NCBI GenBank assembly: GCA_022823665.1
Contig: JAJEHN010000037.1
Location: 115,439 to 179,438, forward strand
DNA length: 64,000 bases
Origin: Thermoanaerobaculia bacterium
GTDB lineage: Bacteria; Acidobacteriota; Thermoanaerobaculia; Multivoradales; Multivoraceae
Direction: 5' to 3'
Each line of letters starts with the position of its first letter. Within the stretch, counting starts at the first letter, position 1. Position numbers and translations under genes: made by a program. Of the stretch, positions 34,959 to 47,107 are shown piece after piece. Below the pieces are notes generated by a model. It saw only the letters and a list, made by a program, of their open reading frames with translations. It was not told where the DNA came from and did not search any database.

Positions 34959-37775
34959 CTACTCCGGTTCGCTCTCAATGCGGACGTGGTCGGAGAGTTG
35001 CAGGTCCTCCAAGTCGCGCCGCAGGTCCTTGGCGAGGACGTCGGCCTCGGCGCCATCGGTTGCTGTCTCCAGTCGGACGCGTACGGTCACGTCCTCGTTG
35101 GCTGCGGCCCGCAGCCTTGGCAGCAACTTGAGGCCAACACGGTTCCAGGCGCCCGAGGGGATCTGGCCTTCCAGGCGTAGCCGCACCGTGCTCGGCGCGT
35201 CCTCCGGTTTGACCGGCGTCGAGCTAGCGGCCACGTCGGACTGTCCGCCGCCAGCGAGGGCGAAGCCCTGGCCCCTGTGCTGTTCCATCTCCCGATCGCT
35301 CGGGCGTTCGCCTTCCGCCGCCTTCAGCCGATCGGCGACCTTCCTCTTCAGCAGGCAGACATCCGGATCGAACATGACCTCTTCGGGAGGAACCGGCTCC
35401 CGGAACCAGACACGTTCCGGCGCATACAGCAGGCCTTCCCCGTGGCCGCCCGAGCCGAGCCCGAAATCGCCGTTCGCTACCCAGTCGAGCACCCTGTTCC
35501 GCAGGATCGTGTCTGGGTCGATCAACCGGGTGAGCGACCCGTCGAGGAAGCACTTGCGCAACATCGACAGCGGCCAGACACCCGTCTCGCTGTTGGCGGG
35601 CGGCCAGTTCCGCTCCACGTAGCTGGCGCCCACCTCGTCGTTCAGCAGGCCGAGCGACCGGAGCGCCGCCAGTGCGCGACCAGAGAGGCTGTCGGCGTTG
35701 CTGGAGTGGCCCGCCCCCAGGTCGATGACCGCAATGCGGTCCGGCTCGGCGCCGTCCGCATGAAGGAGGAACCGGTAGTCGCCCCACACCTCCTCTTTCG
35801 CCGCCTCCTCGGCGTCGCGCAGCTGCCTGGCTATGCCGCCTTTCTCCGAGCCGTCGATCTCAGCGCCCAGCGTGCCGCCCCGGACCTCCTCGTCGACGCG
35901 CTTCCAGGCCAGCCAGTGTTCGACCCGATCGCGGAGTCCGCGGCCGGGCTTCTTGACGGTCCAGATCAGAGCGCCCGGATACAGGCGGGGCGCGTTGCCG
36001 CGCTCGCGGGTCCACCGAGCGATTCGTCGACGTAGGTCGCTGTCACTTTCTCCCGTCCACTCAGCTTCCGGGTCGATGACGACCAGGGTCAAATTCTGTG
36101 AGTCCGGCACTGCGGCGCCGTCTTCAGGAAAGAACACCCGGGGAATGGGGGCGCGGCGGTTGAACTCCTCCTTCACCAGGTTGCGCAGCGCCGGCCGGAT
36201 CTCGTTCCGCTCGTCCAGTGCGGCTCGACGGTCGCTCACTACCTTGCGGATCGTTGGCTGATGGTGGACGCGGAAGCCGTCGCTTCCCATCCGGCGAACG
36301 AAGTAGCCGCGCTGCTCGAGTTTCAGGGCCGCTGAGTCGACCGATGTCGTGTCCACGTTCGGCTCGCCAAGCGCGAACCGGAGTTCTGGCAGGTGGGCCG
36401 TCTTGTCGACCTGGCCGCCGGACGACTCGAACAGGATCGCGGCACCCACGCGGCGGTGGATCGAGCGGAGCGGTCCCTTGGTGTCCCGGTCGAGTCCCCG
36501 GGCGTGGGCCCGCTCACCGGCGATGTCCACGTCGATGGCGGCGGCGAGCCTGGGCTCACCGAGCTGCCCAAGCACGACGGCTACGAAGTGCGGGTCGTGC
36601 AATGGCGCCGACCCGAGGGTGATCAACGGTTCGGTCCGGGCTCCCCTGTAGCCTTCACGCTGCGCCCAGGAAACCCACTGGGCCAACATGGCGAGCGTGC
36701 CGCGTGTCTGCTGAAACTGCGGTAGGGCGTTCCACTTGCGCTGGAAGACCGAGAGGGTGGCGGGGTGGAACGGATAACAGGCCTCGAACCGCGACCGAAG
36801 GTGCTCCCGGGCCTTCTTCTCCGTCGTGCTGTCCACCAGCGTCCACTCGGGTGGCAGCCGCTCGCGGCGCTCGAAGCACCAGTCGGCGTACGCTTTTGAG
36901 ACTCTTCTTTGGATCCGTTCCGGGCCGTCCGAGTCGAACAGGCGGCGGCGGACGACTTCGCTGACTTCCGCTTCGTCGTTGGCAATCAGGTCCTTCGCCA
37001 CGCGGCGGATGACCTTGGTGATCCGGTCCTGCCAGGCGAGGTCGAAGTCCGTCATCTCGACCTGGCTTCGCGGCAGGCTGATCACCGCGGCGCCGTGGGT
37101 GGCGCCGGTCATCGCAACCGTCAGGTTCTGAAGGAACGCATGAAACGAGTCGGCCATGCTCCGATGGCGGTTGATGAAGTTGAGCACTTCGTCGAACAGC
37201 AGGAGGACCGGCCCCCCTGCGGCCTGGAACACCCGGCCGAGCGCTTCGGTGCCGGGAGGCGTAGTCCGAGCGGCGGGTCCGAGGCGGGCGACGCCCTCGC
37301 TACCGGCGAGCTGCCTGGCCACGTCGATCCACGGCGTCTCGCGCCCCTCGCTGGGATCCCAGGCGTTGCCCACGAACACTGCTGCTCGCGCCGGCGGAAT
37401 CTCGCTCAGCCCGGCTTCCTGCAACAGGCCACGGACTTCGGCGATGCTCTCCGCCCGTTCCGGTGACTGGGCCAGGTGGTAGAGCGCGGTCAGCGTGTGG
37501 GTCTTGCCGCCGCCGAACTGGGTGACCAGGGTCATCACGGGCGCCGCGTTCGCGGTTTCTCCCGCGAGCCGCCGCAGGACCATCGCCGTGTGTTCCCGCA
37601 GCGCTCGCGTGAAGCAGGTGCGGGCGAAGAATGCCTCGGCGTCCCGGTAGTCCTCGGGCGCGGTGCCGGCTACGACCTGCTCCAGAGCGATCGCGAACTC
37701 GTCCGGGTTGAATGAGCGGCCCTGCCGCACCTCGCTCCGCGGTTGGACGACCTTGTACCAGGCTTCAAGCGCCAT
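34959..37775 (-). CDS. DUF499-family ATPase (BrxC/PglY-like)
   Basis: N-terminus MALEAWYKVVQPRSEVRQG typical of DUF499. Walker A QFGGGKTHTL, Walker B LLLFDEV. 938 aa. Confidence 0.8.
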   Translation of the reverse strand: MALEAWYKVVQPRSEVRQGRSFNPDEFAIALEQVVAGTAPEDYRDAEAFFARTCFTRALREHTAMVLRRLAGETANAAPVMTLVTQFGGGKTHTLTALYHLAQSPERAESIAEVRGLLQEAGLSEIPPARAAVFVGNAWDPSEGRETPWIDVARQLAGSEGVARLGPAARTTPPGTEALGRVFQAAGGPVLLLFDEVLNFINRHRSMADSFHAFLQNLTVAMTGATHGAAVISLPRSQVEMTDFDLAWQDRITKVIRRVAKDLIANDEAEVSEVVRRRLFDSDGPERIQRRVSKAYADWCFERRERLPPEWTLVDSTTEKKAREHLRSRFEACYPFHPATLSVFQRKWNALPQFQQTRGTLAMLAQWVSWAQREGYRGARTEPLITLGSAPLHDPHFVAVVLGQLGEPRLAAAIDVDIAGERAHARGLDRDTKGPLRSIHRRVGAAILFESSGGQVDKTAHLPELRFALGEPNVDTTSVDSAALKLEQRGYFVRRMGSDGFRVHHQPTIRKVVSDRRAALDERNEIRPALRNLVKEEFNRRAPIPRVFFPEDGAAVPDSQNLTLVVIDPEAEWTGESDSDLRRRIARWTRERGNAPRLYPGALIWTVKKPGRGLRDRVEHWLAWKRVDEEVRGGTLGAEIDGSEKGGIARQLRDAEEAAKEEVWGDYRFLLHADGAEPDRIAVIDLGAGHSSNADSLSGRALAALRSLGLLNDEVGASYVERNWPPANSETGVWPLSMLRKCFLDGSLTRLIDPDTILRNRVLDWVANGDFGLGSGGHGEGLLYAPERVWFREPVPPEEVMFDPDVCLLKRKVADRLKAAEGERPSDREMEQHRGQGFALAGGGQSDVAASSTPVKPEDAPSTVRLRLEGQIPSGAWNRVGLKLLPRLRAAANEDVTVRVRLETATDGAEADVLAKDLRRDLEDLQLSDHVRIESEPE

Positions 37776-37835
37776 GGGTTCTCTCCGGGAGGGTCAGCGA
37801 GCTGATTCTCGTGATCATTGGGACACCCACACTTG

Positions 37836-46700: not shown

Positions 46701-47107
46701 ACGATCAGGATGCGCTCGGCGAGACCGCGCAACTGGAGCTCGCGAAGGAGCAGACCCGACATGATCGTCTTGCCGGCACCAGCATCGTCCGCGAGCAGGA
46801 AGCGCACCCGCGCCGGTTTGAGCAGGTGGTCGTACACGGCTTCGAGTTGGTGGGGCAGCGGGTCGACCCGGGACACTGACAGCCCGAAGTACGGGTCGAA
46901 CTCCCAGGCGATGCCGAGCGCATGGGCGTCGAGGCCGAGCCGAAGCAGCTCGCCGTCGCCGTCGTAGCGGAACACGCTGTCGGTCGCAGACAGCTCGGAG
47001 AGCTGCGCGGCGTCGAGCGTCACCTGCCGGAAGAGCTGGGTCCGCGTGCCGACGAGGCCGAGCTTCCAGCCGCCCAGACCGTTGCCCGCCACGGTTACCA
47101 CGCGCAT
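43742..47107 (-). CDS. SNF2-family helicase with C-terminal DUF3883-like (PD-(D/E)xK-like) domain
   Basis: Motif I DDAGAGKT, II VIVDEAHRM, III LLLTATP, VI QRMGRIHRYGQ. C-terminus GYDITSLDP...LRLIEVKG...YWLYVV. Confidence 0.8.
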   Translation of the reverse strand: MRVVTVAGNGLGGWKLGLVGTRTQLFRQVTLDAAQLSELSATDSVFRYDGDGELLRLGLDAHALGIAWEFDPYFGLSVSRVDPLPHQLEAVYDHLLKPARVRFLLADDAGAGKTIMSGLLLRELQLRGLAERILIVAPSNLTFQWQRELREKFDQSFVVLKGAELRAQYGVNQWMERDRIITSLDLAKRDEILPGLKQARWDLVIVDEAHRMSARDESHKSLRYKLGELLRDTSDHLLLLTATPHKGDPENFSLFLQLLDRDAYANVTSIRHALHQGRAPFYLRRTKEAMVHFPQRDANGEWVVRPIFTRRIPSTAGFSIEGAEHELYREVTEFVKRQSRLAAERDDPRGRAMGFLMALYQRRLASSTRALFRSLGNRADRLEQALARAHDLASAAPPDLPSIDDLEELDEMEEQERERVLELIEAISLTDNADAIREEIAELRALAVRAEAVERQGVEAKLTRLERLLRRDGFFERPDQRLVLFTEFKDTLDYLVERLRAWGFRVATIHGGMKPGSRDETGTRLHAEQQFREGAVQVLAATEAAGEGINLQVCNVLFNYDIPWNPNRLEQRMGRIHRYGQQKDCLIFNFVATNTVEGHVLERLLEKLKEIRNALDDDAVFNVVGQVLPASRMDRLMRDYYAGRLGQEDLEERILRPMEESRFRDICRNALEGLASKKLNLEMLVERRARARERRVVPETIARFLREAAPRTGLDLRFLRGVKLRHAFEPGRTPAGLRRYQRDEDWRLADLATRYPRCTTDRDTAQSHNLEWVTPGHPLFEAVRRHTRDEAADSLRAGATFHSLDHAEPARIDFYRAQVVDGMPAVVQDKLLAVELRADGESPVRREPGVLGNLTPAPPPEEFPAMTFEPAPEAWLHEQVLGPLLEETRAERVAEVGRVADYVRRSLTELLNRADEEIGRAALEVEAGRRGAEGRLKRAELRHDELSARRTRRLEELERQRSLTLQGVERITSVLVLPHPERGAADVRRHRPDPATEMTAMRVVMEHEEGQGRRVEDVSAKNLGYDITSLDPNSGDLRLIEVKGLAARSGTVLLTPNERRVAEDRPDCYWLYVVTDCATNPVLRDPVPNPAERPWVEVRKVQHYYLDVEKLSTASKGRSDR

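Follow-up and report, generated by a model that had tools for sequence, protein, structure and literature searches.

A Thermoanaerobaculia defence cassette read as an Hma system probably carrying two autonomous single-gene modules

We describe a 12-kb cassette of five co-oriented genes (Table 1) in a 64,000-nucleotide stretch of a Thermoanaerobaculia genome (the window), which is best explained as an Hma system with two autonomous single-gene modules inserted between hmaA and hmaB, a reading to which we assign a probability of about 0.8. Judged from profile matches, the helicase/DUF1156/DUF499 triad is an Hma system, alias Type-1 BREX-related (BR), and the cassette is a real and ordinary representative of an already described anti-phage kind. 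The two inserted genes encode a GmrSD-Schlafen fusion and a small protein, ORF3, and the five genes are probably co-transcribed, acting as three separable systems. Because no promoter or terminator was identified for the five-gene cassette, we infer co-transcription from spacing alone. The ORF calls agree with a first-pass annotation of this DNA in placing the genes on the minus strand with short gaps of 34-70 nt (63, 34, 70 and 60 nt in cassette order). An upstream ATG of hmaB at 40910 would turn the third gap into a 23-nt overlap with ORF3; the shorter hmaB has the support of an independent public gene call, in which the 212-aa and 993-aa products both recur on the identical scaffold.

Table 1. 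Genes of the cassette and of the adjoining toxin-antitoxin pair, in window coordinates.
Feature	Position	Strand	Product	Basis
hmaA	43742-47107	-	1121 aa	ORF call
gmrSD-slfn (embedded gene 1, gene 2 of the cassette)	41561-43678	-	705 aa	ORF call
ORF3 (embedded gene 2, gene 3 of the cassette)	40888-41526	-	212 aa	ORF call
hmaB	37836-40817; alternative start 40910	-	993 aa; 1024 aa from the alternative start	ORF call
hmaC	34959-37775	-	938 aa	ORF call
higA antitoxin	34614-34907	+		NCBIfam antidote_HigA 1.8e-31; HTH_3 at the syntenic locus L001
higB-like toxin	34315-34593	+		ORF; HigB-like_toxin annotation at the syntenic locus L001

The call of a defence cassette, and the more hesitant suggestion that its triad might be Hma, were both borne out by PADLOC matches to HmaA, HmaB and HmaC. 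The hmaA product matched HmaA at E 5.6e-172 over residues 38-1074, with Pfam matches to SNF2-rel_dom, Helicase_C and NOV_C, and the motifs GAGKT (K113), DEAH 207 and D1026...E1041-V-K1043 can be read from its sequence. It is predicted to be an SNF2-family translocase with a C-terminal PD-(D/E)xK nuclease, the restriction effector of Hma/Type-1 BR. PADLOC BrxHI/BrxHII and DrmD profiles also match HmaA; because its NCBIfam DrmD score (344 bits) lies under the cutoff of 610, it is not assigned to DISARM. The hmaB product matched PADLOC HmaB (E 1e-108), Pfam DUF1156 (4.7e-22) and NCBIfam DUF1156_antiphage (9e-58, under the curated cutoff), and it contains motif I VVDPFAGGG 167 (FAGGG 171) and motif IV DPPY 564 in the numbering of the 1024-aa ORF. 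It is a predicted DUF1156-type N6-adenine DNA methyltransferase, the self-marking enzyme. The hmaC product matched PADLOC HmaC (E 2.6e-94) and Pfam DUF499 (1.5e-10), carries Walker A GGGKT (K91) and Walker B D195-E196, and is a DUF499 ORC/Cdc6-like AAA+ ATPase of the non-HEPN variant; an N-terminal HEPN is found on this ATPase in about half of the taxa with Type-1 BR, whereas a Pfam search detected none in the window HmaC. [quoted passage not shown] In the Pfam and PADLOC searches, the four large genes fell into defence families and not housekeeping ones, and ORF3 had no significant match. Among the domains named in the first-pass annotation, GmrSD_N, SLFN_AlbA_2, DUF1156, DUF499 and SNF2/Helicase_C were recovered, NOV_C appeared where DUF3883 was expected, and Pfam DUF1524 gave no match in the GmrSD-Schlafen protein at E<=0.01.

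Hma was described as HmaA/HmaB/HmaC (Payne et al. 2021, PMC8565338) and has been reclassified as a DUF499-centred Type-1 BR system (NAR 2026, PMC12839542), with which the earlier label of a BREX-related cassette is in agreement. The three core proteins are identical in domains to those of Hma/Type-1 BR and likewise co-oriented; the window copy shows no essential difference and adds two embedded genes. Markers of Type-2 (DUF3780, HKD-helicase) and Type-3 (PglZ, iSTAND) gave no Pfam match in the five proteins or in the flanking genes. BREX type 3 and DISARM have a homologous ATPase, methylase and helicase; PglZ, BrxA, BrxB, BrxL and DrmA, DrmB, DrmC are absent from the cassette. BREX sensu stricto was rejected, there being no PglZ in the cassette or flanks and an ATPase of the DUF499 rather than the BrxC (DUF6079) kind, and DISARM was rejected too, with only a generic SNF2 likeness to DrmD and no DUF1998 or PLD genes. 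The layout itself had been thought undescribed, and here the published surveys decide otherwise. Among 1,485 Hma systems, 62.7% contain embedded genes; these run in the direction of their host system in 96.7% of cases, and GmrSD-like proteins, to which the models HEC-05 and HEC-06 go back, are frequent among them (Payne et al. 2024, bioRxiv 10.1101/2024.01.29.577857). Across Hma loci, the published embedded-gene share is about 63-66%, often GmrSD-like. Defence genes including a DUF262/DUF1524 gene are inserted inside Halomonas hmaABC (Liu et al. 2024, PMC11232893), and the 2026 survey lists GmrSD and Schlafen as auxiliary effectors (PMC12839542). Most of the related Hma loci that we examined have inserted genes between hmaA and hmaB, as in the published surveys.

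By its motifs and profile matches, the first embedded gene encodes a GmrSD/BrxU-like Type IV nuclease (DUF262 NTPase plus His-Me) fused to a putative prokaryotic Schlafen RNase. Pfam matched GmrSD_N (DUF262, 1.9e-29) and SLFN_AlbA_2 (1.2e-14, residues 550-687), PADLOC HEC-05 matched at 5.5e-41 with its profile covered to position 592 of 600, and phmmer found the BrxU structure 7p9k at E 2e-13. The His-Me nuclease call is based on the motif, the HEC-05 profile coverage and the 7p9k match. The motifs are DGQQR at 78-82, H433 (H433-H-V-F-P), N453/N457 and the Schlafen E550-x4-E555-x-K557. Across 119 sequences DGQQR, E550 and E555 do not vary, H433 and N453/N457 are kept in 117-118, and K557 is read from the window sequence only, not from that set. 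Homologues number 4456 at E<=1e-10, and both domains are present in nearly all of the 120 listed. As the phmmer E value is only 2e-13, the protein is a distant relative of BrxU, whose 587-aa chain leaves no room for the extra Schlafen domain, about 150 aa long, at the C-terminus of the window protein. It resembles HEC-05 (=BrxU) and HEC-06 as a GmrSD-like protein co-oriented between hma genes with DGQQR and His-Me motifs, and, by published description, it resembles EcoSlfn7 of the DUF262-Slfn class in the fusion of DUF262 to a Schlafen domain with Ex4(E/D)xK. The DUF262-Slfn class is a single-gene defence with the catalytic motif Ex4(E/D)xK, and EcoSlfn7 lowered T7 plating in E. coli by about 540-fold (Nat Microbiol 2026, PMC13056530); no mechanism has been published for the class.

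In L013, a MAG from another phylum, Gemmatimonadota, the GmrSD-Schlafen gene stands between hmaB and hmaC with an HEC-01 pair as its neighbour, and in L020-L023 it stands between hmaA and hmaB amid other inserts. It is solitary in L012, L048 and L049, and in L009, which has no Hma, it adjoins a Type ISP enzyme. Its close relatives (59-67% identity) are Hma-embedded in three of the four non-syntenic loci sampled (L013, L020-22 and L023, against L012), which could reflect a functional partnership rather than mere co-residence. The clade of about 700 aa might thus be dedicated to Hma as a partner in function and not a lodger, a possibility weaker than the one raised below for ORF3.

The second embedded gene, ORF3, belongs to a family that comprises about 860 clusters at 50% identity and has no model in Pfam, PADLOC or NCBIfam. 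Its N-domain (residues 1-98, approximately) has a RelE/ParE (BECR), DUF4258-like fold that is conserved in the family, with the two N-terminal helices, four-stranded antiparallel sheet and C-terminal helix that mark the BECR fold. A disordered linker (residues 100-130) leads to a C-domain (about 133-206) formed by a variable beta-beta-alpha-alpha-beta-beta unit. Pfam DUF4258 did not match the window ORF3 even at E<=10 and matched 8 of 93 family members (best E 6e-5); by Pfam's criterion ORF3 is a relative of DUF4258 but falls outside it. No antitoxin fold can be recognised in the C-domain (MqsA, HTH and RHH were all excluded), and no small antitoxin gene adjoins ORF3. Fused toxin-antitoxin genes such as DUF4258-MqsA are known (Gerdes 2025, PMC11980606), but the C-domain of ORF3 is not MqsA; it also lacks the AdoMetDC/thioredoxin domains of HEC-07, an Hma-embedded RelE-domain protein. 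Our best guess, and the least certain part of the analysis, is that ORF3 is a candidate RNase toxin with a fast-evolving C-domain, forming a one-gene toxin-plus-inhibitor or toxin-plus-sensor unit.

The cassette lies among housekeeping genes (an SSF symporter, M28 and M14 peptidases, an ABC transporter and a TonB receptor), and the HigBA pair, convergent with hmaC, is within the same variable island and outside Hma. Between the M14 peptidase and the SSF symporter, the cargo differs among related MAGs. At this site, the five genes of the cassette recur in L001 and L011, with proteins 87-93% identical to those of the window, and HEPN-MNT-HEPN genes and ATPase pairs are added in L007. In L014, MNT-HEPN replaces ORF3 and Hma is intact, and L009 carries the GmrSD-Schlafen gene with a transposase and the Type ISP enzyme. 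In a further related MAG (L010), hmaA is internally deleted and the GmrSD gene is truncated and joined to hmaB. The site in related Acidobacteriota is a variable defence hotspot with fast turnover.

The first-pass annotation had implied a single integrated machine of the restriction-modification type, built from all five proteins, in which GmrSD-Schlafen and ORF3 would be obligate subunits coupling methylation, translocation and two nucleases. The tight, co-oriented spacing, with terminator-like sites fewer than expected by chance, the five-gene order kept in L001, L002 and L011, and the recurrence of the GmrSD-Schlafen clade within Hma in several lineages speak for it. However, while the five genes do recur together, those loci are orthologous, at the same site and with Hma proteins 87-93% identical, and are thus not independent evidence. 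The GmrSD-Schlafen gene also changes position in L013 and occurs without Hma in L009, L012, L048 and L049, ORF3 is exchanged in L014 and its relatives elsewhere are solitary, embedded genes are absent from about 37% of Hma systems, and HmaA alone protects against T4. We consider such a machine very unlikely.

A role for ORF3 as an accessory or regulator that serves hmaB or Hma in this lineage, such as an RNA-binding adaptor or a factor coupled to hmaB by translation, is unlikely too. ORF3 is found directly upstream of hmaB even with the extra genes inserted in L007, and this fixed position could mean service to Hma. Against this, Hma is found without ORF3 in L014, L013 and L020-23, the public gene call starts hmaB 70 nt downstream, which leaves no overlap between the genes, and the third-position GC of ORF3 (0.69, against 0.83-0.85 in the four large genes) suggests a separate history. 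Furthermore, ORF3 relatives at 30-45% identity stand alone among housekeeping genes in the five unrelated contexts examined. A decaying island of non-functional genes, as the damaged L010 locus and the quick turnover of the hotspot might suggest, is extremely improbable for the window: its five ORFs are full length and without frameshifts, every catalytic motif is intact, third-position GC is typical for coding sequence, and identity to the sister loci L001 and L011 is high.

For an Hma system with two inserted modules, the following course can be proposed. HmaB would mark host DNA as self by adenine methylation, the HmaC AAA+ ATPase would assemble or guide a scanning complex, and HmaA would move along DNA with its SNF2 motor and nick or degrade unmarked invader DNA with its PD-(D/E)xK domain. 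These core steps are drawn from the protein families, and T4 defence by HmaA alone and nickase activity have been reported for the Halomonas homologue only; HmaB had no effect on T4 (Liu et al., PMC11232893). Most likely, the GmrSD-Schlafen protein would provide an independent second layer against phages that evade restriction through hypermodified DNA, acting by analogy as a modification-dependent nuclease, with RNA cleavage by the Schlafen domain as a possible further response. ORF3 would contribute a RelE/DUF4258-fold candidate RNase toxin with a C-terminal inhibitor or sensor.

In conclusion, what remains new in the cassette is modest and lies in the uncharacterised ORF3. We tentatively suggest, with the odds against it, that ORF3 represents a new and fairly widespread single-gene defence or addiction family whose RNase domain is restrained by its own C-domain. 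If this is true, the release of the ORF3 RNase on infection would follow a fused toxin-sensor logic like that of CapRel, built on a BECR scaffold.

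The window cassette is a DUF499-centred Type-1 BREX-related (BR) system, or Hma, in its variant with a non-HEPN ATPase, and it carries an embedded GmrSD-Schlafen gene. The region from 34959 to 47107 is filled by five long open reading frames, all on the minus strand, as the first-pass annotation had described. Its suggestion that the helicase, methylase and ATPase genes might be Hma was right, since the PADLOC profiles for HmaA, HmaB and HmaC all match, and its assignment of the cassette to defence is right too. Every domain that it named agrees with our Pfam and PADLOC searches, with the qualification that Pfam DUF1524 itself is not reached by the gmrSD-slfn product at E≤0.01. 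The His-Me nuclease call for this protein is therefore based on the motif, the full-length match to the HEC-05 profile and the BrxU match. Among 119 sequences, DGQQR, E550 and E555 are invariant, and H433 and N453/N457 are kept in 117–118. Two other assignments were considered and rejected. DISARM was raised by a DrmD profile match, but the NCBIfam DrmD score is far below the cutoff and the defining partners are absent; BREX sensu stricto was raised by BrxH profile matches and is excluded because PglZ is absent, as are the other defining partners.

Features of the cassette, its surroundings and the compared loci (window positions unless a locus is named)
Feature	Position	Strand	Product	Domains and matches	Motifs
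hmaA (gene 1)	43742-47107	-	1121 aa	SNF2-rel_dom, Helicase_C, NOV_C; PADLOC HmaA 5.6e-172	GAGKT (K113), DEAH 207, D1026...E1041-V-K1043
gmrSD-slfn (gene 2)	41561-43678	-	705 aa	GmrSD_N, SLFN_AlbA_2; PADLOC HEC-05 5.5e-41; BrxU 7p9k 2e-13	DGQQR 78, H433, N453/N457, E550-x4-E555-x-K557
ORF3 (gene 3)	40888-41526	-	212 aa	no match in Pfam (E≤10), PADLOC or NCBIfam	
hmaB (gene 4)	37836-40817 (or 40910)	-	993/1024 aa	DUF1156; PADLOC HmaB 1e-108	FAGGG 171, DPPY 564
hmaC (gene 5)	34959-37775	-	938 aa	DUF499; PADLOC HmaC 2.6e-94	GGGKT (K91), DE 195
HigB-like toxin	34315-34593	+	92 aa		
HigA antitoxin	34614-34907	+	97 aa	NCBIfam antidote_HigA 1.8e-31	
ABC-transporter ATPase	50021-51046	+		PADLOC mad3 1.4e-26	
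tRNA-Gly(acc) call (ARAGORN), almost certainly false	41599-41692	+			
Locus without Hma	L009, 1-16019				
HEC-01A/HEC-01B pair	L013, 8227-9976			PADLOC 4e-157, 2e-63	
HsdR-like Type I protein	L022, 1-1269			HSDR_N, ResIII, T1R_D3-like, C-terminal SLFN_AlbA_2	
Schlafen-HATPase_c_4 protein	L023, 2986-4224		412 aa		

The first-pass annotation also regarded the five-gene layout as undescribed, and this does not hold, because the cassette is a member of a published embedding pattern and both its core and the embedding are already in the literature. Hma was defined from 1,638 instances in 26 phyla (Payne et al. 2021, PMC8565338). GmrSD-like proteins are frequent among the genes embedded in it, HEC-05 (BrxU) and HEC-06 come from that context, and several embedded candidates have been validated (Payne et al., bioRxiv 10.1101/2024.01.29.577857). 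Halomonas HmaA, whose nuclease domain is a nickase, guards against T4, and defence genes including a DUF262/DUF1524 gene, placed between hmaA and hmaBC in Figure 5 of that work, are inserted inside the hmaABC operon, with insertions in 66.5% of loci (Liu et al. 2024, PMC11232893). A 2026 NAR survey renamed Hma loci as DUF499-centred BR systems and distinguishes three types: Type-1, whose helicase carries an REase at its C-terminus; Type-2, with DUF3780 and an HKD helicase in addition; and Type-3, with PglZ and iSTAND in addition. It lists GmrSD (ParB-HNH) and Schlafen RNases among the auxiliary effectors (PMC12839542). Prokaryotic Schlafens that carry Ex4(E/D)xK act as effectors in defence; 1.8% of them are DUF262-Slfn fusions, one of which, EcoSlfn7, reduces T7 plating about 540-fold (2026 Nature Microbiology, PMC13056530).

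With the ORF3 start at the ATG at 41526, which has GAGGAGG just 5' of it, and the methylase start at 40817, the intergenic gaps are 63, 34, 70 and 60 nt, in line with the first-pass annotation. The public gene call of the identical 669-kb scaffold (ENA ERZ23491513) gives the same 212-aa ORF3 product and the 993-aa methylase. In this window of about 69% G+C, third-position GC is 0.83–0.85 in the four large genes and 0.69 in ORF3; this gene may have a different history or be less well adapted in codon usage. No sigma-70-like promoter was found, and the terminator scan was uninformative, with 4 terminator-like sites seen and 7.3 expected by chance. The tRNA-Gly call at the 3' end of gmrSD-slfn is treated as spurious because of its 94-nt length and its antisense position in a coding region. 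The flanks are housekeeping genes. An SSF symporter and a peptidase of the M28/PD40 type stand on one side; the other holds an M14 peptidase, an ABC/GldG-like transporter and a TonB receptor. Neither flank gave a meaningful PADLOC match. The sole match, of the ABC ATPase beside GldG-like and DUF4340 genes to mad3, most likely reflects the general similarity of ABC ATPases and marks a transport or gliding operon, not defence. Between the SSF symporter and the hmaC end lies a HigBA pair, an additional element of the island in its own right, which the first-pass annotation did not mention and which is also present in the syntenic locus L001.

The site between the M14 peptidase and the SSF symporter is a variable defence hotspot with modular turnover. 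Relatives of ORF3 with 60–92% identity occupy the same locus in related MAGs of the Acidobacteriota, which belong to Candidatus Multivorans and other Thermoanaerobaculia. These syntenic loci are orthologous, so their common gene order is not independent evidence; what they do not share is informative. L001 and L011 have the same five genes as the window. In L007, HEPN-MNT-HEPN lies between GmrSD-Slfn and ORF3 and two ATPase-plus-small-protein pairs lie between hmaB and hmaC, and in L014 MNT and HEPN genes occupy the expected ORF3 place and an AAA_15/21 ATPase separates hmaB from hmaC. L010 holds a decayed Hma in which hmaA is internally deleted and a truncated GmrSD gene is joined to hmaB, and L009 has no Hma but a GmrSD-Slfn gene (86% identical), a DDE transposase, an ABC-type ATPase and a 1678-aa Type ISP / Type IIG enzyme.

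Beyond this lineage, the GmrSD-Slfn gene is autonomous and mobile, because it occupies varied positions in Hma and also occurs alone. The architecture of about 700 aa with GmrSD_N and SLFN_AlbA_2 is abundant (4456 matches at E≤1e-10). A Candidatus Palauibacter MAG (L013, Gemmatimonadota) has it between hmaB and hmaC, and in L020–L023 it stands between hmaA and hmaB, amid YhcG, NOV_C, PIN, NucS, MNT-HEPN, DruA and transposase genes. A Dehalococcoidia MAG (L012) carries it by itself amid IS elements, and more distant full-length fusions (30–35% identity) stand alone on S. meliloti pSymA and Haloquadratum plasmid PL100. The clade of the window's protein clearly favours Hma as host, with three of four non-syntenic loci Hma-embedded in a sample of close relatives (59–67% identity), and this may be a partnership like that of BrxU in BREX. 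Some of these loci carry further cargo. In L013, GmrSD-Slfn is directly preceded by a HEC-01A/HEC-01B pair, also between hmaB and hmaC. Immediately upstream of the hmaA homologue in L022, the HsdR-like protein is another Schlafen fusion adjoining an Hma locus, and the Schlafen-HATPase_c_4 protein embedded in L023 brings the Schlafen-domain genes there to two.

For ORF3, a word-indexed search recovered only 17 relatives, whereas an exhaustive profile search gave 861 clusters at E≤1e-3, of which 581 pass E≤1e-10; most are about 200 aa long and span both domains. In a metagenome scan with an 18-sequence alignment, most contigs returned were too short to show gene neighbourhoods. In the N-domain, H10, R14, R18, H46, F49, S51, D54, F58-V-A60, D63, T71, L73 and P74 are each at least 90% conserved, and the C-domain is highly variable across the family. 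The AlphaFold2 model (mean pLDDT 72.6) places a disordered linker at residues 100–130. The ORF3 profile matched no PDB sequence, and Pfam DUF4258 was reached by 8 of 93 relatives (best E 6e-5). DUF4258 is a BECR-fold family to which no function is assigned, and fused DUF4258-MqsA toxin-antitoxin genes are on record (PMC11980606). Searches of phage genomes and of viral contigs found no relatives, which leaves an origin from phage or as an anti-defence gene without support, and plasmids gave only three partial matches to the N-domain. ORF3 could also be read as an accessory linked to hmaB, as its place directly upstream of hmaB is constant in this lineage, L007 included. Outside the lineage, its relatives stand alone amid unrelated genes (for example, a MutS_V gene upstream; near PLD and DUF3800; lipid and sugar metabolism genes). 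A self-contained module of toxin plus inhibitor or toxin plus sensor probably fits best, because a conserved toxin-like domain is combined with a hypervariable second domain in a solitary gene.

Cleavage of modified DNA by BrxU/GmrSD and tRNase-based defence by Schlafens have been shown in other systems. The present analysis shows homology, intact motifs, operon-like spacing and the modular turnover of the locus. In the proposed scheme, HmaB would mark self DNA by m6A, HmaC would organise scanning and HmaA would restrict DNA without the mark. GmrSD-Slfn would deal with phages whose DNA is hypermodified, perhaps with a further response at the RNA level, and ORF3 would be a BECR-fold RNase module.

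In conclusion, the locus is correctly filed as Hma / Type-1 BR with an embedded GmrSD-Schlafen gene, an unknown BECR-fold gene and HigBA, and not as a new five-component system. Nature offers here a clean case of "guilt by embedding": in sister genomes the one hotspot has swapped its cargo, which includes HEPN-MNT, HEC-01-like ATPase pairs and a Type ISP enzyme. The remaining interest lies in the recurrent pairing of the GmrSD-Schlafen clade with Hma and in ORF3, the one lead worth following, as an unannotated family of hundreds of members in which a toxin-like fold is joined to a second domain that is hypervariable.
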